Virus record (IMG/VR): IMGVR_UViG_3300037313_000116
Location: 1 to 37,012 of that record
DNA from: a virus
Lineage: Duplodnaviria; Caudoviricetes
Reading direction: 5' to 3' (one strand)
Length of the DNA: 37,012 nt
Shown here: positions 5,930-32,456 of the stretch, piece after piece
Numbering within the stretch: position 1 is the stretch's first letter
Layout: each line of letters begins with the position of its first letter
Notes under the pieces: model-generated
The model's input: only the letters and a program-made list of their open reading frames with translations
The model's database searches: none
Told to the model about the DNA's origin: nothing
Position numbers and translations under genes: made by a program

Positions 5930-8900
5930 TACCTTCCTTCCCTAATATTTACAGCACCTTTGAAACCACTAGTAGCGTTCTGCAAGCGTTGTTGCTCATC
6001 TTGGGACAGGTGTTGATCTCTCATCCAAGTGCTGAATTTACTGACAAAGGAATCCGGAGATTCCCCCAACTGTGCAGCTTGTTGGATATATCCCTGAATC
6101 TTCGCAGTGGTCAGATTACCACTCATAGAGTCGTACTTAGCCCGAGTCAAGATACGATCCACCACATCAGCATTGCCCTTTTGAATCTGACTATCTGAGT
6201 AGTTCTTAGCCAGTTCTTTGGACTCACCAATGCTACGGAATCCAAAGTTCCGCATAGCCATTTCCCCATCACTACGATACACTCGTCCTTTACCGAAGTT
6301 AGGACCAGCAGTGTTGTTCTGATAGAGGTTACGACCATCTGGTTGTTTCTCCGTGAACATCTGATTCTCCAAGAATCCTTGAATGGATTGAGGAGCAATG
6401 GATTTACCCAGCATCTTACCAGTAGTCATGTTAGGCTGAACCACAAAGCGACCAGTTGCCTGTGCCATATCCAGAACCGCACTACCGTATGGAATGAGTG
6501 CCTGTCCCATATTATCCGGGATCAGATTGGCATTACTGAATCGACTTGTCATATCCAAGCCAAGAGTACTAAAGATACCATGCGTAAGCAGTTCAGGAGT
6601 ATTATGACTGAACAGTTCATTCGTCAGAGTGTCCGGCTTCCCAAGCATATTAGTCACCAACTGATAAGCAGTGTCTGCTTCGTTATATCCGAAGAAGCCC
6701 ATAATACCCCCGAAGGCTAACGAGGTGGCAAGAAATGCAGCCATAGGCGTGTAACTCTTGATACCATTATCAGCACGAATGCCTTCACGGGTATAGAACG
6801 CCATTTGACTTGCTTGGTTATGCTTATACCGAGTAAGGGTACTTGCAATGTCACCAAGCCAGCCGAGCTTTGCATACCCCATCGGACGTTCGATAGGATG
6901 GTAATTCACCATCGTGAAGTTCGTCATGTTCTCAGCAGCACCAAAGATATCCTTAGTCGGGATACCAGCGTCTTTGAGCAAATGAGAATAGAACAGGAAG
7001 GATATACCGCGAGTCAGGTGTTCCGGAATCGTGATATTAAGGTCTGCGATCTTATGGTAATTCTCCATGATCGGAGACTGATTAATATCCTTGGTATGGT
7101 CTGCCATTTTCACATCCATGATACCATTCTTGGCAGCATAGTCAAGGGCTTGTTTTTCAAAGCCACTCAGCTTAGTCATCTTTTCGTCAGTAAGACCATG
7201 TAGATAGGTATTAGCTGCCTTAACCTGAGCAGTGGTAGCACTGAACTCCAGACCACGATTCTTCAACAAAGCAATCATACCGGGGTGAACCTGTAATGGT
7301 TGCATAAGCTGAGTAATCGAGAATGGAATATTCAACAGTCCCATAAACTTCTGCATGGCAAAGTGCTTCACCAAGTTTGATGCCTTGAACATATTGCTAT
7401 GTCCAATACCACTGAACTCTCCTAGCTTAGATACAGTCCAGTTAGCAGCATCTGCCAGAACTCCTTGATTACGTCCAAGGGCATGGTCAACATATTGCTT
7501 TGCCCATTCCGTAGCATTTGGAGTCTGCTTAACTACTTCCTCATCTCCCAATAGCGGTTTCAGATCGTGAACTGCTTTCTCCATTGCCATCCACGAATAG
7601 CCCTGTTCGTAGTACGCAATCTGTGCCTTCATACCTTCTTCGGCATTCTTCATAGCCGTTTCCCACGGCTTGTTGCCTTGACTACCAACAATACCACCAG
7701 CATCTTTGACCTTAGCCTTAGCATGACGAGTAGCATTCAAATAGTTGATTGCATCACTCTGCATGTAATCCCGATAGGTCTCAAACAGCTTAGCAGCACT
7801 TGCATCAGTGCGCTCGATGAAGTTGATAGCTTCCATCAGACCGCCAAAGCGATCAGCAGGGCGCTTACCACGGCCTAGGGTGTTGTATTCACGCTTACCC
7901 ATTTGCCACTCTGGGTGCTTCTCAGCCATGAACTTCGAAATTTTATCCAGTTCCCAACGAGTAGAGCCAGCAATACGGCCTACGATCTTACCATCGGCAT
8001 CAAATACGAATCTGGAGAAGTCACCCATAAAGCGACCAGCAATGTGAGCAGTACGCTTATCAATCGGCTTCATACCTAGTTGAGCACGAGTATCATTGAA
8101 GTCCTTAAAGAACCGGTTATCAATTTCTCGTTGCTTGAGGTAGTAGGCCACTTGCTTCTCATTCATTCCTGCTTCTCGAAGTTCCTGACCACTGAGTTCT
8201 TTGTGGCCTTCATGAAGCATTTGTACTGCCCAAATTTCACCCTTCTCCTCTGGAGTGATCTCGCGCATGCGAGGCACTAGGCCAGTCTCCGGATTCGTCA
8301 GATAATCCTTGACATTGCGGGAGAACTCTTGAGTAGCCCTAGTCATACGCTCGTAAGTATACTTCACTACCGGATTACGGGTCTTGAGGCTTTCAAACAA
8401 ACCACCTGCCTGTAACTGGTGACTTAGACGTTCCAACATGGTATTGGGGATATCGTCAGCCTGCTTTGCCATGCCGATGATTTCATCCATCGGCTTATCA
8501 TAGAAGGTAAAGTCAGAAATCGGACCCTCCAGACCCGGAACCTTCAGACGTTGAACATCTTCAAAGTTCTTGGTGTTTACGGGTTCAGGCTTCTTCTTAC
8601 GAGTTACCATCAGGTCCGATAGCTTACTAGGCATACCGGCATCCTCTAGAGTACTCTTAGTAGTGTCCTTACCAGCCTCAGCAATCTGTTTACCCAAGTC
8701 AAGCGTATGTTCCAGAGCATCCGAGATGGGAGTACGGGTAGAGCCCGACATTCCTAGAATACTCTTCACATTGTCTACAAACCGCCGCCACGTAGAGCGG
8801 TTCTGATTCTCAAGCTTGTGTTCCTTGAGATACTGCTGGAATTCCGGACTAGAGAATGCTTCAGCCAGAAACTCCTTCGGATTCACAATGCTCGGAAACT

Positions 8901-15581: not shown

Positions 15582-17372
15582 TTACGTGCGAGAGACAGTC
15601 CAGTTGTTGTATTCCGTAACCATATCAGGCTGGAACAGTTCATACACACAATAACATTCCGCATCCCATAGGTATTGGAAGCTTTGCGTAGATGAGATAT
15701 CGAAATAGACATACGTACTGCCATCTGGTTGAAGTGCAGATGCACTCATCGTCACAGTGACATCGGTTGCCGTAGACTTCGCATTCCGGTTAATTGCACC
15801 ACCTGAATTCTGAGCCGTTAGGAAGATATCACCACCAGAGTCTCCAGCACCACTAGTATTCAATGCTAGGAACTTGATACGAGCACAGACCTTATGGCCA
15901 TTACTTAACACCTTGGCTCGGAAGCGTAATTTACTTGCAGACGTTGCCTGAGAAGCGAACACACCTTTTTCAATAACCGAATAGTTGTTTGCCCCTGCAC
16001 CGACACTGTTGCTATTAAAGTAGGGGACACGAGTCTTAGCAAGTGGCATTAACGCAGAGGTAGTCGGAGTAAGTCCGTAGGAGGTCTTAGTTGCCGAAAC
16101 CGCAGCAGGCATATTATTATAAGTTGGTGCCGGAGGCGATGCCAGATTTTGGTTAGGCATGTCTCCCTCAATTACCACCACATCAGGGGTACATTTGGCT
16201 GTATTAATATATAGCCAATCTGTAAGTGGGATTTTATCCAACCCACGTAAGTACACTTTACGGGCGCTCTCCACATTCAAAAAGCCCGGTTTGCCACTGA
16301 TGTTTGATACAATTGGGCTGGACACATCCAGTTTGAACCTGCCGTCTACATATAGATAACCACCGCAGACTTCAGCGCCGCAATTGTGCATTTCTACGAT
16401 ACTACTGGTATCTAGGTAGTTGGTCGTAAAAGGTCCAGTAGTGCCAATATACTCATAGGCATTGCCAGTGTTGTTATCAGAGGCACAGCTAATCAGACAG
16501 GAATAAACGGTCTGATCCATAATACGATAGCCGGTTACACCATCTTTCGCATAGCAGTTCTGTGCCACGAATGATGTACCCTTTACCTTATAGCCGAGAG
16601 TATTGAAGCGAGCTTCACAGCTATTTAGTTGCATAAGACCTGCATAGAGGTCAAATCCAGTGGCAAAGTGCCAGCAGGCTACCGATTCCAGAATAACATG
16701 CGGACCAAAATTGGCCATTTTTAGGCCAGTATTGGTATTGGATGTACCACCTTCTTTACTGATAGTAAGACGCTTAATAGTCAACCAGCCATAGTATCCG
16801 GGTGCGCCGGTGTTGACAGCCATGCCATCAAAGTCACCAGACACACTAATTTTACTAATGATTTGGCTGTTAATCTCTCCAGAACCACCACAGCCTTCAA
16901 TAATAGTGTCTTGATTGATAATCAGAGTGGCCGTGGTTTTATAGGTTCCACCGGGGAAAAAGAAACGTCGAAGTTTACCATTAAAGGCATTTTGAATGGC
17001 GGTCGTATCATCGGTAACACCATTACCAGTGGCACCAAACCAACATACATTAACGGAGCCATCAAAACGGCGTTTCCATCGCTTACCGGTGCTAGCTACA
17101 ATCACCGTACCACCATCATCAGCAGTGGTTGTATCACTATCATCACGTACAAACATACCTGCAATACCAGACGGTGCACTCGTTGCAAGGTAGCCTGTGA
17201 GATAGACGCTCTGGCGCGGGCCGGTGTAGGCCCGCAGGGCGGTATAGTCAACAAGTTGTAGGGCATTAAGATCAGATTGAGCTTGTGGAAGGTCAGAATA
17301 GGCAGCCTTATTTACATCATTCAGCCAAGCTGAGTCAATAACCGTGCCGGTAGTAAAAGTTTTAGAAGTCAT
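15582..17372 (-). CDS. tailspike 1, right-handed beta-helix (pectate lyase 3-like) putative depolymerase
   Basis: WLNDVN anchor; DYTALRAY...DDGGTVIV...RWKR domain; V.WFGA.G.GVTDDT.AIQ.A. Confidence 0.85.
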   Translation of the reverse strand: MTSKTFTTGTVIDSAWLNDVNKAAYSDLPQAQSDLNALQLVDYTALRAYTGPRQSVYLTGYLATSAPSGIAGMFVRDDSDTTTADDGGTVIVASTGKRWKRRFDGSVNVCWFGATGNGVTDDTTAIQNAFNGKLRRFFFPGGTYKTTATLIINQDTIIEGCGGSGEINSQIISKISVSGDFDGMAVNTGAPGYYGWLTIKRLTISKEGGTSNTNTGLKMANFGPHVILESVACWHFATGFDLYAGLMQLNSCEARFNTLGYKVKGTSFVAQNCYAKDGVTGYRIMDQTVYSCLISCASDNNTGNAYEYIGTTGPFTTNYLDTSSIVEMHNCGAEVCGGYLYVDGRFKLDVSSPIVSNISGKPGFLNVESARKVYLRGLDKIPLTDWLYINTAKCTPDVVVIEGDMPNQNLASPPAPTYNNMPAAVSATKTSYGLTPTTSALMPLAKTRVPYFNSNSVGAGANNYSVIEKGVFASQATSASKLRFRAKVLSNGHKVCARIKFLALNTSGAGDSGGDIFLTAQNSGGAINRNAKSTATDVTVTMSASALQPDGSTYVYFDISSTQSFQYLWDAECYCVYELFQPDMVTEYNNWTVSRT

Positions 17373-17384
17373 TAAAGATACCTT

Positions 17385-18920
17385 TTATCGGATCGTCACA
17401 AACTCAATTAGAATAGATACGGTTAGATCAACGACCGTGGTGTTTGAGAATGTAATTTTTTTGTTAGTAGCATCCCCTGCAATAGTTAAAGACCTATTGA
17501 CAGCATTAGCCACCGTAGAGACGGTACTGAGATTTGCAGCAGTGCCATAATTATTTACCAAGAAATCAAATTTTTGGTAGCTTCCTTGGTTTTGCGAACC
17601 ATTTAGATAACTATGTACTCGAATAGTACCAGCAGCCACATTTTCATTGACAAACGTACCCTTGAGTACCGAAGCAATATCGAGGGAGTACACACCTGTA
17701 GTATTGCTGATAGTGGTAGTAAGGGAGATAGTAGCCGTTTGTTTACCAAGATACCGATAAGTGTAGTCAGTGAATGCAACACGCTCTAGAGTAAACCAAC
17801 CAAGGCCGGTCAAGCCTGTTGCAGCAGTACTACCAAATGAGGAATCTTTAACCGTGTTACCACCAGACAGGGACAGGGTAGAATCTACGTTCACACCTTT
17901 ATCCATAGTAAGCCGGTCAAAGTCGCACTTAATACATGCAGACAAGGCACAGGAGACACTTCCCTGTGTATTCGTGGCGGTAAACCGGGAGACTTTAATT
18001 CGGTTGTTATAGTTACCTGCGGTGTTATACCCAACAAGTAGGGCACGATTTCCAGCAGCATTTACCAGACAGTTGCTAAGTGTAATGTCCGAGGAATCAT
18101 TAATCTCAATATTATCACCGCCAACACTATTACAATTTACATTGGCAACTTCGCCACGATTAGTCTCGGTGAACGTGATAGCAATAGCAAAGCCACTATT
18201 GTATGTGAGAGTGTCAAAGTTTAGATTTTTGGCAGTGAAGTTATCACACTTATAGAAGTGAATACCGAAACCATAAACGTTGGAGACACTCATATTCTCC
18301 ACAGACACAAAGGTGCTGCGGGTTGTTCCAGCAGGCTCAAAGGCCAATGCATAGGCAAAGTAACCGGAACCATTGATACCAGAATTGGTGAAACTATAAT
18401 TACGTACTGTGGAGTAGGTGGACCCATTCAGATAGAGACCAACTCGCAAACAGTTTGTAATGGTCAGGTCAGTGAACTGTGTATAGGACCACCCACTCAA
18501 CCAAACACCACCAATCACATTGGTATAACTATTATTGACTTGATTACAATCTAGCGTGCCATTAATCACCCCAAAGTTAGTGCCGGGAATACCACTATCA
18601 TAAAACAATGGGGCATTCGTACCGGCTTTAGCCTTCAGGGTACTTTGCTTTAGATTTACAAGAACGTTACTTTTTGGGACAATCTTGGTGGAGACGTATG
18701 TCTTACCGGCCTCAAACCAGACTTGACCACCGCCGATAGAATTCGCAAAGGAAACGGCAGCTTGAATAGCAGCAGTATCATCAGTAGAACCATCACCCAC
18801 GGCTCCAAAATCTTTAACACTGACAATCGCTTTAGAAAGAAAAACCAGTGTGTTATTTACGCTGTTAAGCCAGTCGGCAGTAACAGTCGTAATATTAGGG
18901 ATAAATTTAGTATCAATCAT
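17385..18920 (-). CDS. tailspike 2, right-handed beta-helix putative depolymerase
   Basis: WLNSVN anchor; VSVKDFGAVGDG.TDDTAAIQAA; Asn-rich beta-helix rungs. Confidence 0.85.
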   Translation of the reverse strand: MIDTKFIPNITTVTADWLNSVNNTLVFLSKAIVSVKDFGAVGDGSTDDTAAIQAAVSFANSIGGGQVWFEAGKTYVSTKIVPKSNVLVNLKQSTLKAKAGTNAPLFYDSGIPGTNFGVINGTLDCNQVNNSYTNVIGGVWLSGWSYTQFTDLTITNCLRVGLYLNGSTYSTVRNYSFTNSGINGSGYFAYALAFEPAGTTRSTFVSVENMSVSNVYGFGIHFYKCDNFTAKNLNFDTLTYNSGFAIAITFTETNRGEVANVNCNSVGGDNIEINDSSDITLSNCLVNAAGNRALLVGYNTAGNYNNRIKVSRFTATNTQGSVSCALSACIKCDFDRLTMDKGVNVDSTLSLSGGNTVKDSSFGSTAATGLTGLGWFTLERVAFTDYTYRYLGKQTATISLTTTISNTTGVYSLDIASVLKGTFVNENVAAGTIRVHSYLNGSQNQGSYQKFDFLVNNYGTAANLSTVSTVANAVNRSLTIAGDATNKKITFSNTTVVDLTVSILIEFVTIR

Positions 18921-22094: not shown

Positions 22095-22901
22095 TTAAAC
22101 TCCTTTAACCTTGTTAAGTTCTGCCATATACTGCTCTTTAGTCATCACACCAGTACGAACAAACGTATTCATGATACGACGTTCGTCATCAGTCAGGGAG
22201 GACTCATTTAGAGCACGTCCACCACCTTTACCACCACCTTTCGAAGTGCCTTCGACAACAGGTGCTTTTTCACGGTTGGGATTGCGGAACTTAGCTGGAA
22301 ACTCTTCCTTTACTTTTGCCTCAACTTGTCGCAGAACTTCCGAAGGGGTCATGCCCTGTGCTCGGAGTTCCAGACCCAATGCATCAGCAAAAGCCTTCAT
22401 TGGTTTAGATGTTTCATACCAAGGGTTGCGTTTAGTCCAAGCAGCAAACTCAGGATGGATAACTTCCGCAGTGGAAGCGCGTTGTGCTTCTTGTGCCTGC
22501 TCTACTTCAAACTTACGTTGTGCCTCTTTAACAGCTTCCAGCCGGTCATCAATCTCGATGACTTTATCCGGATCACCATCAATCAGGGCATCACGCTTCT
22601 GAGTCTTGAGGTCAGAAAGAGCACGTTTATACTCGGTCTCACGAACTTGAGCGTGGTGTTGCTTAAGAGCCTCAAGGCCACGTTTCAGTTCTTTAAGTTC
22701 CCGATTTTGGAGATCAAGCTTTTGGAAAAGAGGTGCTCGACGAACGAACTCACCTGCATCTACCCACTTAGCCGGATCACCATGAAACTCATCCTTCGGA
22801 ACCCAACCAGACTCCCGTGCTTCGACTTCGATAGCATCAGGCTCATGGTTTTGGATTTCGGTTGCTTCTTGATTTTCTACCTCTTGGTTATTATCACTCA
22901 T
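22095..22901 (-). CDS. scaffolding protein
   Basis: Acidic N-terminus, GW.PK.E......WVDA.EF, coiled coil, W...NPW, position between portal and capsid. Confidence 0.75.
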   Translation of the reverse strand: MSDNNQEVENQEATEIQNHEPDAIEVEARESGWVPKDEFHGDPAKWVDAGEFVRRAPLFQKLDLQNRELKELKRGLEALKQHHAQVRETEYKRALSDLKTQKRDALIDGDPDKVIEIDDRLEAVKEAQRKFEVEQAQEAQRASTAEVIHPEFAAWTKRNPWYETSKPMKAFADALGLELRAQGMTPSEVLRQVEAKVKEEFPAKFRNPNREKAPVVEGTSKGGGKGGGRALNESSLTDDERRIMNTFVRTGVMTKEQYMAELNKVKGV

Positions 22902-23262
22902 CTTTAATTACCTTTGTAATTTTGCAGATGATATCCTCATCGTTAAGAACAAGAATGTCTTCATCTGTGTCTGGGTCTTTTACGAATTTACCTGCATGCC
23001 GGGCATACGCCACATAATCACCTACATCACACCACGGTTCTCCACCGAAATCCCGGAAAGCCGTCTTGCCAATAGTAAGCACGACACCCTGATCCACAGA
23101 GGCTCGCTCACGATTGATCTGAGCCTCCAGTTCATCTTGGTATTGGTCCGGGATAACTAGACCAAGAGATTCGGCCTTTTTCTTAGTTTTCTCTGCCTCA
23201 AGGTCTTTAACCTTGAAGTCCGGTCGGATAGTCAGTCGGTGGCCAAGAGCTTCAATTGCCAT
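22894..23262 (-). CDS. GroES-like co-chaperonin
   Basis: LG.RL.I.P, G.V..IG, VGD.V.Y..HAG, LND.DI; start at MAIEAL with GAGGT RBS. Confidence 0.85.
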   Translation of the reverse strand: MAIEALGHRLTIRPDFKVKDLEAEKTKKKAESLGLVIPDQYQDELEAQINRERASVDQGVVLTIGKTAFRDFGGEPWCDVGDYVAYARHAGKFVKDPDTDEDILVLNDEDIICKITKVIKDE

Positions 23263-23467
23263 TTTCCACCTCATCAAATTGAATATTCAGAAGATCAATC
23301 AATGCCTGAATATATCCCACTCGATACCTATCAGTTCTGATATCAATCCCAGCATTGCCACTGAGTTCATCCTTAACTCCCTGAATACGCACATTCAGTT
23401 CATTAAAGACAGCTTTAGTAACAGAATTGGACTTCCAATCTCGAAAACTATCTTTTGTAATAGACAT
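23252..23467 (-). CDS. hypothetical protein
   Basis: F..WK...VT motif; coupled to portal stop. Confidence 0.7.
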   Translation of the reverse strand: MSITKDSFRDWKSNSVTKAVFNELNVRIQGVKDELSGNAGIDIRTDRYRVGYIQALIDLLNIQFDEVENGN

Positions 23468-25663: not shown

Positions 25664-27184
25664 TCAATATCCTGTAAAGTTATTTCGACCTGTATCCTCT
25701 AGATCGGATTTACGCATTTCTTCCATATACTCTTCCTCATCCATTTCAACCTGAGTAGGAGCTTCGATAAGTTTATCCAGCATAAGACCTAGATATGCAA
25801 AGGTATCTACTTGGTCATCATGTTTTGCACGAGGAAACCGCAAAAGTTCCTCCTCAAACTCCCCATACCAGTCACTTTCTTTGTCAAATTTAATACCTTT
25901 AGCCCGCATACGAGCCTGAATCGATCGGCTACGTGTCAGTTTATCCTTACCCCCGTGTTTAAGGGGATACAGGTTTAAAAAGGTATTAGTTTTGACCATT
26001 TCTTCACGCAGAAACGGGCCAATTGACTTGGAAACTTGCATATCTTCGATACCTACAGCTTCTGGCTTATACAGCCGCTGAAGAGCAAGAAGTGTATCAA
26101 CGATCTCACGACCATCCATACGCTCACGAATAACATTTTTAACATGAATTACCTTGTTTTCGTCAACACCAGCCACCAAGAACACAGAATAGTCAGCCCG
26201 TTCATTCTCAGAAATAGCCAAGTCAGCGGTCACATAGTAGAGTAACTTGGCTTTCTTGTCATCTTCTGAGATTGGCATGAAATCTGCCTTCTTGAAGTAG
26301 GTAGTAGACATGTCCAAGGGATAATTCAGATACTCTTGACTGTAAACATCGGTAGTACCATCACGAACTGCCTCGTTATAGAGCATTTTGAACCACTCTG
26401 CACTCTTCTTTTGAGGCCAGAGAAGCTCCGTAAAGTTCTCATTATGGGCACGATACTTGACCGATTTCCACAGACTGCGGGCCTTACTGTAGGTTTTTAG
26501 ACCTTCGTGAACCGTTTGTTTGTCATTCTCACGAGGCATCACATTCTCAAGTAGACTATCCATGTGCAGGATAGTGCCTACCATACGAACAATACCTTTG
26601 TCAGAGATACAGGGCAGAAGAGCACCCTTGAACCAGCGTTTCATCTTCTCACGACGGTCTTTATTCATCACCAACTCATCATTCTCCATATCATCACAGA
26701 GAATAATGTCAGGACGAGAGCCGTTCCAGAGGAGACCACGAAGTTTCTGTTCAGCACCTTTCGCAATGATACGGAACCGATGTCCATCATTGAACTCAAC
26801 GATAATATCGTTCTCAGTATCCTTGAGGAACTGGACTTGACCCTTTTCATTACGCTTCAGGTCAAATAGTTCGATTAGGTCTTGATTATCTTGAAGGGCT
26901 TGTTTGAAAGTACCAAGGAACAGAGCAGCCTGTGCTTCTGTGTCAGATACCAGTAGCATGAACTTACGCTCCCGGAACAGGAGGGTACTCATGCCATAAC
27001 CAAGGGTAACACCCGAGGATTTAGCGTGCCCACGAGGAGCAGCCACTGCTACATATTTGTGTGGGGAGCAGCAAAGCTCCCAAACTTCCCGGTGGAAGGG
27101 AGGACTTTCTACTGCCCCGTCGAATCCTTGGCTAAGGATACTGCTGACAAATCCTTGAATAACGTCGGGGCTTAGTTTACTCAT
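25664..27184 (-). CDS. terL: terminase large subunit
   Basis: APRGHAKS Walker A, IILCDD.E Walker B, VGT.LH, DLAIS...ADY, HDDQVD nuclease. Confidence 0.95.
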   Translation of the reverse strand: MSKLSPDVIQGFVSSILSQGFDGAVESPPFHREVWELCCSPHKYVAVAAPRGHAKSSGVTLGYGMSTLLFRERKFMLLVSDTEAQAALFLGTFKQALQDNQDLIELFDLKRNEKGQVQFLKDTENDIIVEFNDGHRFRIIAKGAEQKLRGLLWNGSRPDIILCDDMENDELVMNKDRREKMKRWFKGALLPCISDKGIVRMVGTILHMDSLLENVMPRENDKQTVHEGLKTYSKARSLWKSVKYRAHNENFTELLWPQKKSAEWFKMLYNEAVRDGTTDVYSQEYLNYPLDMSTTYFKKADFMPISEDDKKAKLLYYVTADLAISENERADYSVFLVAGVDENKVIHVKNVIRERMDGREIVDTLLALQRLYKPEAVGIEDMQVSKSIGPFLREEMVKTNTFLNLYPLKHGGKDKLTRSRSIQARMRAKGIKFDKESDWYGEFEEELLRFPRAKHDDQVDTFAYLGLMLDKLIEAPTQVEMDEEEYMEEMRKSDLEDTGRNNFTGY

Positions 27185-27490: not shown

Positions 27491-28030
27491 TTAAGGAGTG
27501 TCAGTGAGAATACCGTTAGCAACTAACGCGGCATAAATACCAGCAATTTTGGCAGTGTCAGTTGCAGAAGGGTCAAGGTAATAGACGGGTTGTGGAGTCG
27601 CATTATTACATCCAAAAGCACCTGTACTGGCGAGTTGAGTAAATTTACCCTTTGCCCAGCCTGTTTGCCCAATGTCCATATTATCAATTGTACCCGGAGT
27701 CAGGGGTGCTTTAATTTGAATACCTCCGACACCAATAGGTGTGATGGTAATATTGGAATTTACGGGGTTAAATGTCACAGGACCGGGGACAGCAAGAGAG
27801 GTAAATTTTCCGGAGCTTGGAGTAACTAACCCTATCTGACCCGGTTCCTCCCAAGTATGGGCTTCCAAAGTAGCTGCATTCAGACTTTCGAGACTACCCC
27901 CAACACGTAGAAACATGGCATATAGAAAGTCATATGCTTCTTTAGTGAGGTTACCATTCTGGTCCGTAAACAGCATGTAAGGACGAAGTGGGGAGATTTT
28001 ACCGGATGTCATCGATAACCTCTCCAACAA
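27491..28030 (-). CDS. hypothetical, fibre-like virion protein (start possibly 28012)
   Basis: Two IG..T...GKFT.L repeats. Confidence 0.6.
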   Translation of the reverse strand: MLERLSMTSGKISPLRPYMLFTDQNGNLTKEAYDFLYAMFLRVGGSLESLNAATLEAHTWEEPGQIGLVTPSSGKFTSLAVPGPVTFNPVNSNITITPIGVGGIQIKAPLTPGTIDNMDIGQTGWAKGKFTQLASTGAFGCNNATPQPVYYLDPSATDTAKIAGIYAALVANGILTDTP

Positions 28031-28568
28031 TCACATCAGTGACCTCGATAATGGGTTTAGTACCATTGGCAATCTGTTCAAACTTCTCAGCCAGTTTGCT
28101 GAGTTTATCGTCAATCTGCTCCACACTGACACTCTGGGGACGTTGGTTGTCCAACACATCCCGACGGTTCATCATGTCTATAGCCACTTTATGAGCATCC
28201 TTCATGGACACTGGTTTACGAACCATCTGACCAGATTTGTTGTCATAGATGAAGTCACCATTAGCCAATCGATCCTCAGTAGCAGCCAAGGTGCTCTCGA
28301 TGATTCGCTTCAATCGGGCACTCAGTTGGATGTTTTCTTGGGACTTGAGATCAATCTCCATCTCCTTCCACCAATCCTTCTGTTTCCACTCACGAAGAGT
28401 CATTTCAGGGATTTTAAGGACACGGGAGGTAAGAGACAGATTACCAAGTGATAGGTAGGTAGTGATCGCTTCTAGCTTCTGACTGTCTGACCAAGAACGG
28501 CCAACAGCACCTACTGGACGACCTCGTTTAGATTGTTTGGATTGCATACGTTCGTTGTCAGATAGCAC
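27999..28568 (-). CDS. terminase small subunit (putative)
   Basis: HTH-like WS...KLEA...Y...GNL......IPE.TL..WK...WW; first late gene; GTG 28568 has GGGAG 7 nt upstream. Confidence 0.7.
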   Translation of the reverse strand: MLSDNERMQSKQSKRGRPVGAVGRSWSDSQKLEAITTYLSLGNLSLTSRVLKIPEMTLREWKQKDWWKEMEIDLKSQENIQLSARLKRIIESTLAATEDRLANGDFIYDNKSGQMVRKPVSMKDAHKVAIDMMNRRDVLDNQRPQSVSVEQIDDKLSKLAEKFEQIANGTKPIIEVTDVIVGEVIDDIR

Positions 28569-28666
28569 AGATGGACTCCCATAAAGTAAAGTTATTAGGT
28601 AAGACTGGTTGAATTTTGTAGAACACCAAAGTATGTAACTCACATAAATTACCAGTCTATAATAAT

Positions 28667-28695
28667 ATTATACCACAAATAGTTCCAAAAGTCAA
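28667..28695 (-). promoter_or_regulatory. sigma70 promoter driving the late/structural module
   Basis: TTGACT-17 bp-TATAAT with extended -10 TG on minus strand. Confidence 0.85.
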
Positions 28696-28807: not shown

Positions 28808-28836
28808 TTGACATTTAATACTATTTATGTTATAAT
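28808..28836 (+). promoter_or_regulatory. consensus sigma70 promoter facing non-coding DNA
   Basis: TTGACA-17 bp-TATAAT with extended -10 TG. Confidence 0.85.
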
Positions 28837-28909
28837 CTATTATATATAATTATATATATATATATTTATAGTATTATATATTATTATTTATATATAAGTA
28901 TTACTAATA
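28837..28909. repeat. extremely AT-rich, (TA)n-like tract
   Basis: Direct reading; almost no G/C over ~70 bp. Confidence 0.9.
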
Positions 28910-29241
28910 CGCGCGTACGCGAGGGGTGGCATCATACCCCGACGCGCAATCAGGTCAATTATCTCTCATACCATGTCACCAAGACTATGCTACGCCTGCG
29001 AGGCCCGGCTTCATGGGCGAGCAACGATTTAAACGAGCTATAAGCCATTTTATACCCATCAGGCTACCCTCGTACCAACCTACCCCTAAAAACGTCTCCT
29101 AGACCCCTTAAAATCGTTTTAAACGATATTCAAGGATGCCTCCCTCCCTAGATCGCCTTATTAGGCTCTAATGTCTGCTCAAAAATTATAAAAATCGTAG
29201 TAAGCTGCCTTACGCAGTTTTTCCCTCCCGGCAGTTTTCCT

Positions 29242-29254
29242 CCCCCCCCCCCCC
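29242..29254. repeat. C13 homopolymer
   Basis: Direct reading. Confidence 0.9.
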
Positions 29255-29372
29255 TCTTTAAAGCACACCTGTCGAGACACTCCCAACATCGAGGGTTCCT
29301 AACCCTTGGGAATTGCAGATAGGCAATTGATCGGGGGCAAGTATGCGTGTTGCAAGGGGGCAATATTGTACT

Positions 29373-29387
29373 GCCTAAAATTTAAGC
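29373..29387. promoter_or_regulatory. Fis-like site 1
   Basis: GCCTAAAATTTAAGC, one mismatch to GNTYAAAWTTTRANC. Confidence 0.6.
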
Positions 29388-29416
29388 AGCCTAATGTAGA
29401 ATTTTTGTTCTATTTA

Positions 29417-29435
29417 GCTGAGAATCGTTCTCATT
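29417..29435. promoter_or_regulatory. Fur box-like site
   Basis: GCTGAGAATCGTTCTCATT vs AATGAGAATNATTCTCATT. Confidence 0.7.
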
Positions 29436-29463
29436 TACGTTCAACAACTTGGGCGTATATATG

Positions 29464-29481
29464 TGTCAAGGAAACTTTACA
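29464..29481. promoter_or_regulatory. TyrR/PhhR-like box
   Basis: TGTCAA-N6-TTTACA vs TGTAAA-N6-TTTACA. Confidence 0.4.
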
Positions 29482-29535
29482 TTTTCATGGGCACAATTGT
29501 TACAGAAAGTGTTAACTTTCGGGCAGATTTGGGCA

Positions 29536-29551
29536 CTGGGTTTTTATACAG
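29536..29551. promoter_or_regulatory. LexA (SOS) box 1
   Basis: aCTGGGTTTTTATACAGta, CTG-N10-CAG. Confidence 0.7.
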
Positions 29552-29728
29552 TAAAAGTCGGCTATGCCTCAAACGCGCTGCCGGACAGGGCTAGGTAGCT
29601 CTCAGACGCCACGCGTCCGATAATGGTCTCTAATCGCGTCTAAACCGCATTGCCATTATGCAACAATTTCATATTGTGGGAAATCAGGGCTGATTTGTGG
29701 TGTTCTTGACAAGTGATGTATATGACCT

Positions 29729-29743
29729 GCTCAAAGATTAGGC
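29729..29743. promoter_or_regulatory. Fis-like site 2
   Basis: GCTCAAAGATTAGGC with the same CT/AG flanks as site 1. Confidence 0.5.
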
Positions 29744-29768
29744 AGGGCTATCATTATTCGTGATAATC

Positions 29769-29784
29769 CTGTATAGGCATACAG
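29769..29784. promoter_or_regulatory. LexA (SOS) box 2
   Basis: CTGTATAGGCATACAG, CTGTAT-N4-ATACAG. Confidence 0.75.
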
Positions 29785-29881
29785 CAAGGCATGGGAAAAT
29801 CTTCCCAATATACGGAATTGTCATTTTGATATCATATAGATGATCTAGATATGTTGCTCATACACAATATGCGCATGCGCG

Positions 29882-29911
29882 CGTCTAGCATGGATCATTT
29901 AGGAGTGTCAA
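29882..29911 (-). promoter_or_regulatory. possible leftward sigma70 promoter
   Basis: TTGACA-18 bp-TAGACG with extended TG; weak -10. Confidence 0.4.
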
Positions 29912-29948
29912 GAGAAATAATACGTGTCGTATTTGTGCTACATCGTGA

Positions 29949-29964
29949 TTCCTAATATTGGGAA
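29949..29964. repeat. TTCCYAAYATTRGGAA palindrome copy
   Basis: TTCCTAATATTGGGAA, 3 bp upstream of the early -35. Confidence 0.8.
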
Positions 29965-29967
29965 CGC

Positions 29968-29995
29968 TTGACACGACCAACCATCGGTGTATGAT
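29968..29995 (+). promoter_or_regulatory. early sigma70 promoter
   Basis: TTGACA-16 bp-TATGAT followed by a hairpin at the predicted start. Confidence 0.75.
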
Positions 29996-30128
29996 GGGAA
30001 CCGTTGTAAGACGGTATCGACGGATGGGGTAGGGGAGTGCGACCCATCGAAACGGTATGCCTACTAACCGGAAGCCGGTATGCGTGACCCGGCATGTTGT
30101 ACCCATGTTCACAACGAACAGATGGGAT

Positions 30129-30140
30129 TGCTCTTTAAAA
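30129..30140 (+). promoter_or_regulatory. boxA antitermination element (rrn/nut type)
   Basis: TGCTCTTTAAAA vs rrn boxA TGCTCTTTAACA; preceded by hairpin 30102-30126. Confidence 0.7.
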
Positions 30141-30315
30141 ACTTAGTAGCTCATATCCTCCCCCATAGCAGGCGTGCATGCGTCTGCGACTATTTGGGGC
30201 ATTTGGAACGTCGGGATTTGGCAAGGCCAATCGTTAGCTAGTCTAGCGGACGTGCTGAGTGTTCAAACCTAAGCGCAACGAGTTTGTGTTTAGGTTTCAT
30301 TCACAAGGGGGAACT

Positions 30316-30510
30316 ATGTCACCACTACAGCAGGCAGCAAGGCAGTTTGCTATTGCCGCAGGATATCGTGAAGGCGAATGGAAACTGTTAGAGAATCCTT
30401 TGGCTAGTAAAGCAAAGAATCCAGCATATTCCATCTATGTCAGGGCGCTGGGCGCAAAACGTGGTAAATGTATCGGGGCTATTATGCTCAGGAGCATTTA
30501 CCCAATCTAA
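30316..30510 (+). CDS. early hypothetical protein
   Basis: ATG 30316 with AAGGGGG RBS (ORF track start 30259 runs through a hairpin). Confidence 0.7.
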   Translation: MSPLQQAARQFAIAAGYREGEWKLLENPLASKAKNPAYSIYVRALGAKRGKCIGAIMLRSIYPI

Positions 30511-31331: not shown

Positions 31332-31446
31332 AACCAGCATTTAACATTTGTAACATTTGTTGTATTTTAGCAACAGTCAGGTGTGGTAAAAATACAACTT
31401 GCGGAAGATCAACGTTTCATGAGATAATCTTTCCTAGTTGCAGGTT

Positions 31447-31486
31447 TGTAGGAATTTTCCTACAGGATTTTCGGAATAGTCCTACT
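31447..31486. promoter_or_regulatory. tandem NarL/GacA-family-like response regulator boxes
   Basis: TGTAGG-N6-CCTACA (31447-31464) and degenerate copy 22 bp downstream (31469-31486). Confidence 0.5.
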
Positions 31487-31502
31487 TTCCCAATATTGGG
31501 AA
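31487..31502. repeat. TTCCYAAYATTRGGAA palindrome copy
   Basis: TTCCCAATATTGGGAA perfect; TAGAAT -10-like hexamer at 31509-31514. Confidence 0.8.
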
Positions 31503-31592
31503 TTGCTGTAGAATGGATGGTGTTGGAGGTGCGGATTGCACCGATGCCGTAGGGCATTTCCCTACATCAATTGATTTTTAGGAGAATATATC

Positions 31593-32456
31593 ATGGCAGC
31601 AGCAGCACAATCGAAACTGGCAAAACAGGCTGGCAAGGCAAAAGCCACGGATTCCACCATCGCCAAGCTTCCGGCACATACCACCACGCAAGCGGCACAC
31701 GCCCCGCGTGCGGCAGCACTCAAAACCGGCGTGGAACTCACCGGCCAGTACCTGTTTGACCGGCTGATCGGCGATGATTCCAAAGCGGACCTGTCCAAAA
31801 TGGATGTCGTGCGGCTGATGGTCCCGATGGACGTTGGAGTGGTCAAAGGCGCAATTGCGGACATGGTGGCCATCGCCAAATCGGCCAGTGATGCCGCTGA
31901 CAAGGACGCCAAAGCTGGTGGATGGGACGGCAAGGCCGACAGTAAGCCGGTCGCTGTGCGTAAGGCACAAGCCACGCTGAAAACCGCACAGAACCACCAG
32001 TCGGTCATGCGTGTGGCATACGGCGCGCTCAAGTTTGCCGAAAAGCAACTCAAGGCATTGGGTGCTGGTGCTGATACCGGCTATTTGCTGATGCAGCAAC
32101 TCGGCAGCAAGGCGCTGGCCGATGCTGGTCTGAATTGGGACGGCACGAAAGCCGAGACCAAGGAACAGCGCGACGCTCGCCGCGCTCAAGGCGACGAAAC
32201 AAAAGCCATGCTCAAGGTGCAGGCCGAGCATCCTCGCAAACCGAACGAATCGCGGGCTGACTACTACGCTCGCATCGATAAGCAAGTGGAGAAGGAACTC
32301 GGCAACATGCGCGCTGAACAGCACCGCGCTCGTGTCGAAGCGCTGGCCACGAAGTTCCGCAAGGATGCGGGCGACGATCTGGCCGAAGTGCTGGAGTACA
32401 TCGCCACGCAAAAAGATCAGCCTGCTAATCCGGCCGCTGATGCCAGTTTGCACTAA
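31593..32456 (+). CDS. Ala/Lys-rich helical protein of unknown function, likely highly expressed
   Basis: AGGAGA RBS; strongly C/G-ending codons unlike neighbours; double terminator downstream. Confidence 0.85.
   Translation: MAAAAQSKLAKQAGKAKATDSTIAKLPAHTTTQAAHAPRAAALKTGVELTGQYLFDRLIGDDSKADLSKMDVVRLMVPMDVGVVKGAIADMVAIAKSASDAADKDAKAGGWDGKADSKPVAVRKAQATLKTAQNHQSVMRVAYGALKFAEKQLKALGAGADTGYLLMQQLGSKALADAGLNWDGTKAETKEQRDARRAQGDETKAMLKVQAEHPRKPNESRADYYARIDKQVEKELGNMRAEQHRARVEALATKFRKDAGDDLAEVLEYIATQKDQPANPAADASLH

Follow-up and report, generated by a model that had tools for sequence, protein, structure and literature searches.

A gene-free, dyad-rich leader at the probable left end of a podophage genome as a possible docking strip for host DNA-binding proteins

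The 37,012 nucleotides (nt) of viral DNA analyzed here, from the IMG/VR record IMGVR_UViG_3300037313_000116 (hereinafter, the window), represent an incomplete (75%) fragment, 37 kb in length, of the genome of a podophage of about 52 kb with a LUZ24-like layout; phage relatives assemble at 48-54 kb, and the runs that contain the window sequence are soil and rhizosphere metagenomes. The late genes, including those for the terminase (25664-27184), portal, capsid and tail spikes, run leftward from 28643, and the early genes run rightward, starting at about 30317 (Table 1). The subject of this work is the segment at 29296-29964 between these two blocks, for which a preliminary description had proposed a dense array of binding sites for many unrelated host proteins in the presumed leading end of the genome. 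The sole close cultured relative of the phage is the Alcaligenes phage QDWS535 (60% in the terminase and portal), which, together with one uncultured phage, provides the top terminase matches; because of this relationship, the host likely belongs to the Burkholderiales. An assignment of the host from GTDB matches was rejected because both matches were mis-binned contigs.

Table 1 Features of the leader and its surroundings (window coordinates)
Feature	Position	Strand	Basis
Probable small terminase, helix-turn-helix (HTH) protein, first late gene	27999..28643	-	TerS role suggested by position, as in LUZ24
Sigma-70-type late promoter	28667..28695	-	11/12 match with TG
Perfect sigma-70-type promoter toward genome end	28808..28836	+	12/12; 12/12 counterpart in L196; other relatives by eye
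Tract of almost pure A+T, a candidate origin or unwinding element	28826..28905	.	Conserved position
Conserved landmark of the probable terminus: A-rich box followed, after a spacer of ~35 nt, by a T-run and a C-run	29177..29254	+	Profile search; contig-end clustering
Docking strip (predicted): dyad-rich gene-free leader	29296..29964	.	Dyad counts vs shuffles
Fis-type site 1	29371..29389	.	Exact match to consensus; second copy 29727-29745
Fur-type box, best-supported site class	29417..29435	.	Family-wide scan
Degenerate IHF-like site, absent from the preliminary description	29439..29451	+	By eye; did not pass the 1-mismatch scan of the window
TyrR-like dyad	29464..29481	.	Conservation in L177
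Conserved orphan element	29487..29503	.	Similarity in L177 and G001
LexA (SOS) box 1, one mismatch in arm	29536..29551	.	Conservation in relatives
Orphan dyad, copies also at 29313, 29350 and 29327 (one mismatch)	29650..29663	.	Sequence
LysR-like dyad, not conserved	29749..29765	.	Changes in X4 and L177
LexA box 2, arms perfect	29769..29784	.	Dyad list
Phage-family 16-bp palindrome adjoining first promoter	29949..29964	.	Also 29802, 31487, 32555, 33156, 34273, 36535
First strong early sigma-70-type promoter	29968..29995	+	11/12 match
Second host-type dyad cluster, including a HexR-like pair	31332..31592	.	z 3.0; precedes 287-aa early gene

The dyad array and the probable left genome end

Counting as a dyad any pair of perfect arms of at least 5 nt separated by 0-12 nt, we detected 21 dyads in 29296-29964, compared to 7.7±2.6 in dinucleotide shuffles, none of which (0/300) reached 21; a repeat run gave 21 against 7.9±2.7 (z 4.8), the top z among the eight non-coding stretches tested. 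The dyad array is real, and all the motifs named in the preliminary description were found where it had placed them. In agreement with its statement that the region contains no credible open reading frame, the three short frames that overlap it (69, 71 and 75 aa) have no match in Pfam. An Rfam scan of the array produced nothing above the gathering score, and long inverted repeats are absent from it. Comparison of the region with phage and plasmid DNA collections yielded matches at chance level only, and nothing in these collections therefore suggests that it was acquired from a known replicon. Between 29327 and 29784, the sites are separated from the -35 element of the downstream 29968 promoter by 184-628 nt, in agreement with the original estimate of 200-650 bp; most of the sites precede this first strong promoter and are located in DNA that is apparently not transcribed. 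In one relative (G001), the first promoter-like site is likewise downstream of the strip.

The array follows a landmark that is shared by the family. Relatives were collected by means of a DNA pattern as well as the terminase, HTH and one of the early genes, and upstream of the late genes they show an outward sigma-70 promoter, an A+T tract (a 60-mer with GC content of at most 10%, located 300-640 nt upstream of the C-run in 16/21 family members) and the landmark. Among the 31 linear contigs bearing the landmark, 7 end 17-196 nt past the C-run, whereas the following 1000 nt contain the ends of 6 (p 0.002). One contig (G008) has its start at about +66 and its end at +106 relative to the C-run, two others start on the early side past it (G003 at about +100 and L177 at about +60), and G001 breaks at the C-run itself; G002 and G007 open elsewhere. 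Because contig ends cluster at this position and because the left ends of phages LUZ24 and tf start with a C-run, the left terminus is probably located at the C-run near 29240-29254, or immediately past it, and accompanied by a short terminal repeat. The contig ends, which come from assembled contigs, are compatible with a direct repeat of up to ~200 nt from the C-run; the short direct terminal repeat characteristic of LUZ24-like phages or Kuraviruses measures about 185 bp. No accumulation of starts or ends was reported for the runs, and positions 28900-29207 of the window are covered by none of them, a gap that carries no weight as evidence. The earlier placement of the region close to a terminus is thus very likely correct, the region being just inside the left end. 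In the published work on phage tf, the left end remains attached to the heads, and its authors state that this does not settle the polarity of injection. The Caulobacter phage RW and the Roseobacter phage CRP-901 were also considered as terminus references and rejected, their ends having given no usable terminus; the landmark profile had no match in LUZ24, phiEco32, RW or CRP-901. In contig L024, a switch to terminase-region coding sequence ~43 nt past the C-run represents a chimeric join.

The names attached to the dyads fared less well than the pattern itself: host-type sites are present, but part of the protein labels are at chance level or fall on a palindrome of the phage's own. FNR-type matches with two mismatches are at chance (8 vs 6.5 across the 21 leaders described below), and by eye the 'FNR-like' site at 29327 belongs to the orphan dyad of Table 1. 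In the published descriptions that we consulted, TyrR regulons come from gammaproteobacterial lineages only, and the TyrR label is therefore doubtful if the host is a betaproteobacterium. The sites labeled GntR-like and LysR-like are not conserved in relatives.

The 16-bp palindrome that adjoins the first promoter has 8 matches in the window against 0.21 expected, located beside early promoters and two of them within the array, and occurs at 8 places in QDWS535. It had no match in 10.8 Mb of bacterial DNA (host motifs were checked in one Escherichia coli chromosome and three Burkholderiaceae megaplasmids). Inspection by eye suggests that the dyads at 29297 and 29666, the latter originally labeled 'IclR-like', are looser copies, and that a variant of the palindrome occupies the same places in G001. 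This palindrome is probably the operator of a phage regulator and separate from the host-type sites. Fold searches with the 287-aa early protein and with the HTH protein gave no match at E<=0.001 and thus no candidate for its binder.

Host-type sites across the family and their conservation

For 21 leaders, those of the window and QDWS535 included, the 450 nt that follow the landmark were scanned with twelve patterns; the controls were 40 shuffles and, on the other side of the landmark, the 450 nt preceding it (20 stretches). Contigs with less than 450 nt past the landmark were dropped, as were near-duplicates (such as L015, L016, L017, L020 and L203); of the candidate new leaders for a held-out set, one proved chimeric and one unrelated. 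Fur boxes are present in 6/21 leaders, compared to 0.0 in shuffles and 0/20 upstream stretches, and exact IHF sites in 8/21 (0.6 shuffled, 1/20 upstream). DnaA boxes produced 8 matches in 4 phages (1.6 shuffled, 1 upstream), HexR-like sites 8 matches in 5 phages (0.8 shuffled, 4 upstream), and one further dyad 4 matches in 3 phages (0.8 shuffled, 0 upstream), the last two patterns having been selected after the relatives were viewed. The HexR-like and DnaA sites occur in tandem copies. At least one exact match to IHF, DnaA, Fur or HexR-like patterns is found in 17/21 leaders, in a combination that varies by phage, and dyad density exceeds z 2 in 10/21. In unguided word counting, Fur-, IHF- and HexR-like words and the phage palindrome rank at the top. 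Thus, the comparison with shuffled sequence supported Fur, exact IHF, DnaA and HexR-like sites, but not loose LexA, Fis or FNR patterns; for one-mismatch IHF, the 32 matches exceed the 13.5 in shuffles, but 23 were found upstream as well. The window itself contains one or two copies each of several site classes rather than many copies for one regulator.

The enriched sites also show positional order. Of the 6 Fur boxes, 4 are at a distance of 13-52 nt to the C-run; of the 15 IHF-like matches within 130 nt, 13 share one orientation (p 0.007), a bias that may stem from common ancestry. By eye, the leader of QDWS535 (L056, about 7934-7949) contains a perfect palindrome that we take to be parS-like, and the leaders L030 and L048 contain what are presumably SlmA-like sites, three of them in L048, which could indicate interference with cell division.

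These counts bear on the possibility that ordinary dyad-rich intergenic DNA, phage operators and chance look-alikes have been over-read as an array. Six of the 12 patterns are indeed at chance, several dyads are the phage palindrome, and four other gaps in the window are dyad-rich too (z 2.4-3.0), so that the dyad excess is partly general to the intergenic DNA of this phage. Nevertheless, Fur, exact IHF and DnaA sites are enriched against two controls and sites are selectively retained in relatives, and we consider such an over-reading very improbable.

Evidence of retention comes from the sites of the window itself. Its Fur box has matches in 7/20 relatives (0.56 shuffled) and the degenerate IHF-like site in 4/20 (1.2 shuffled); some 16-mer with at least 14 identities is common to the window leader and 11/20 relatives (3.0 shuffled). 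The relative L177 is colinear over 29460-29562, with 72% identity compared to 44-46% on the flanks and three colinear blocks kept: both arms of the TyrR-like dyad are identical with 3/6 spacer bases changed, LexA box 1 is identical in 14/16 positions with a perfect left arm, and the orphan element is identical in 14/17 and has a similar stretch in G001. Half of the Fur box is lost in L177, and the Fis, GntR-like, LysR-like (7/17) and second LexA sites are not kept. In G001, Fis site 1 is kept (15/16), and a contig end in run X1 suggests a perfect version of LexA box 1. Strain X4 differs from the window at 22/1588 bases in an early gene region and at 25/142 in mid-leader. Among its substitutions in 29535-29841 (40 of the 148 differences are listed), 5 hit one of seven claimed sites, 4 of these 5 the LysR-like site, which also has 2 indels, and 25 lie elsewhere; the orphan dyad at 29650 and LexA box 2 are unchanged, and LexA box 1 is without a listed change. 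The expectation that relatives would keep the sites while neighboring DNA diverges was therefore borne out for the TyrR-like, first LexA and first Fis sites, but not for the GntR-like, LysR-like and second LexA sites. In close relatives, the sequences suggest a purifying pattern on the claimed sites.

Several neighboring features deserve mention. The Pfam HTH match of the probable small terminase, which has 288 homologs, is weak and under the cut-off; its true start is probably further downstream, which would give a protein of about 182 aa, and the structural model predicts an HTH at the N-terminus along with a hairpin and helices. The outward promoter running into the A+T tract (28808-28905) is found family-wide and resembles a transcription-activated origin; L023 and L030 have a small open reading frame downstream of it. 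The first early promoter is followed by 320 untranslated nt (29996-30316), mildly rich in dyads (z 2.4) and without an Rfam match, possibly a structured leader RNA. Within the second cluster, the HexR-like dyads can be aligned with L177 and G001 but not with L059. The 287-aa early gene after it (31593-32456) is GC-rich and its Ala/Lys-rich product has only 15 homologs; the protein yields a confident all-helical model, yet no family match. The phage also encodes a ribonucleotide reductase and a thymidylate synthase, a GroES-like co-chaperonin in the head module (22894-23277) and two neighboring tail spike/depolymerase-like proteins (596 and 511 aa; 15582-18920). In the G003 contig L055 (2600-2923), the large terminase gene is apparently split by an intron or homing-endonuclease insert.

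Possible roles of the strip

The dyad array is located between the family landmark and the first strong early promoter. We tentatively favor the view, as a possibility rather than a probability, that it is a cis-acting docking device that would hold the entering end until the host RNA polymerase reaches the first promoter. With the physical left end at or just after the C-run, as contig ends and the comparison with LUZ24 and tf suggest, the short terminal repeat would include the initial 100-200 nt of the array. By analogy with phages T5 and T7, the left end would enter first; IHF, Fur, Fis, LexA, DnaA, HexR-type and other host proteins are predicted to bind it, and binding in cis might ratchet or anchor the first 0.3-0.7 kb and bend or mask the end. 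Because such binding would work in cis, the identity of the proteins could vary among phages while the position stays fixed. The phage's own palindrome would be a separate promoter operator mixed into the strip. Cis action is favored by the fixed position with exchangeable content, the proximity to the end, the oriented IHF sites, the single copies and the placement upstream of the promoter. The proteins of the best-enriched site classes are present in high copy; with abundant proteins and mostly one site per genome, occupancy of a single incoming DNA fits better than titration.

Titration is the essence of one alternative, also raised in the preliminary description, in which the replicated genomes would act as decoys for host repressors (of iron, SOS, central carbon and aromatic amino acid regulons) and for replication or division factors, the sites being placed in the sole untranscribed DNA, where binding cannot block phage genes. 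The regulons are unrelated and their release would conceivably help phage production, the sites are distant from the promoter, the HexR-like and DnaA sites occur in tandem, a terminal repeat would double the first sites, and the phage carries genes for ribonucleotide reductase and thymidylate synthase. However, there is mostly one site per regulator per genome, IHF and Fur are too abundant for titration, and neither the orientation bias nor the proximity to the end is expected of a decoy, so we regard it as unlikely.

A sensor of the host state appears improbable as well. Here, bending by IHF and Fis would loop conditional regulators onto the first early promoter or onto weak internal promoters, and there are published precedents in which, as far as the sources describe them, both binding and regulation were shown (Spo0A in phi29, CtrA in alphaproteobacterial phages). 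Sites of conditional regulators are present, the second cluster adjoins an internal promoter, weak promoter matches (9/12) occur inside the strip at 29650 and 29739, and 3/21 leaders contain sigma-54-like sites (not above shuffles). Against this stand the repressor-type sites 180-550 nt upstream of a strong promoter, the turnover of the regulator set even among close relatives, and the identity of the site that abuts the promoter, which is the phage's own palindrome.

In a third alternative, IHF, Fis and DnaA would shape the terminus for terminase cutting, duplication of the repeat or origin firing, and the other sites would be passengers. IHF is the most widespread class, oriented and near the landmark, the outward promoter and the A+T tract upstream are conserved, and DnaA, IHF and Fis are established oriC proteins. 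Such a packaging or replication scaffold would leave the Fur (6/21) and HexR-like sites and the conserved LexA and TyrR-like sites unexplained; moreover, DnaA boxes are found in 4/21 leaders only, and the first 450 nt of the window contain no exact DnaA box and, of IHF-like sites, only the degenerate one. We consider this scaffold quite unlikely. Each of the decoy, sensing and packaging or origin roles explains part of the data, and they may coexist.

A number of observations weigh against the docking reading. Other gaps of the window share the dyad excess, and across the 21 leaders loose LexA, Fis, FNR, CRP, NtrC and sigma-54 patterns are not above shuffles. The HexR-like pattern, besides its selection after the fact, had no match in the four bacterial replicons, no single de novo dyad or 8-mer is clearly above the best shuffle count, and the overall sharing of 16-mers at a low threshold between the window leader and the 20 relatives is within the shuffled range (109; mean 83, max 111). 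The changes in X4 form one block, and the shared IHF orientation could simply be inherited. Homopolymers and low-GC tracts also cause assembly breaks, and the landmark profile had no match in ten long-flank relatives (L034, L036, L049, L222, L224-L228 and L230). LUZ24 and phiEco32 share the layout, yet have neither a landmark match nor a strip that is obvious by eye. Host-type sites are enriched at the probable genome end, but the second cluster lies 2.1 kb inside, beside a promoter, and such sites are therefore not confined to the end. Fur, LexA, HexR and TyrR bind conditionally, which suits sensing or a decoy better than a generic grip. Grip, a ratchet or masking from other end sensors, ideas that belong to the general background, are possible functions; a literature search found no supporting paper for them. 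By contrast, the plain RecBCD nuclease shield envisaged in the preliminary description is unlikely because RecBCD is reported to advance through proteins tightly bound in tandem arrays and to displace them (10.1101/142224).

The wider proposition, that a whole family of uncultured betaproteobacterial podophages uses a protein-free strip of interchangeable host sites, recruiting any abundant host proteins within reach to pull in, anchor and disguise the naked leading end ahead of phage gene expression, is more doubtful than docking as such. If true, it would be a DNA-encoded answer to the problem of entry and survival of leading ends. How the leading few hundred bases enter and are protected before phage proteins are made is a long-standing gap, and in the T5 work it is presented as open (10.1101/866236). 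The family is a compact test object, with a 0.3-0.7 kb non-coding strip, a sharp landmark, natural variants of the site set and one cultured member, QDWS535.

Relation to known systems

With LUZ24, tf and phiEco32 the window phage shares two converging transcription units, sigma-70 promoters and genome ends between the terminase and early genes, that is, the organization of LUZ24-like phages and Kuraviruses with the ends beside the terminase genes. It differs in that its portal is not detectably related at E<1e-5 (no LUZ24-like or Kuravirus portal is among the 18 portal matches, and a homologous portal and terminase were not found), in addition to the missing landmark match (LUZ24, phiEco32) and strip noted above. 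The cosB region of phage lambda has an IHF site tens of bases inside the genome end, like the IHF-type sites of the strip; however, lambda has cohesive ends and terminase R sites and no array of Fur-, LexA- or HexR-type sites.

Three published systems come closer in kind. The injection-stop region of T5 is likewise non-coding, rich in repeats and palindromes and located in first-entering DNA, with host-protein boxes proposed to act physically; as described, it involves one protein, with 8 DnaA boxes that are arranged as fixed inverted repeats at 6-9 kb from the end, and the entry stop is a proposed model (10.1101/866236). The strip in the window would involve many proteins, lies 0-700 nt from the end and has interchangeable content, and it has no paired DnaA boxes in inverted repeats of the T5 type. 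In the CtrA arrays of 'lytic deferment', sites for a host regulator are densely packed, either within terminal repeats or where divergent gene blocks leave a gap, and are gained and lost among relatives, but in the published account they concern a single regulator and promoter regions, with binding and regulation shown, whereas the strip is mixed and mostly far upstream (PMC9437464). In phi29 and Nf, which are virulent phages, Spo0A boxes and parS lie near ends and promoters and act in cis; these phages differ, according to the same description, in protein-primed replication, in the involvement of two host proteins, in the overlap of the sites with promoters or origins and in the tie to sporulation (PMC2731898). 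The preliminary assertion that no system of this kind has been named is thus roughly right for a mixed, interchangeable array, of which we found no description at a phage end in the open-licence literature, but arrays for a single regulator at phage ends have been published. If any of the roles considered here proves true, these single-regulator precedents would extend to a mixed, evolvable array.
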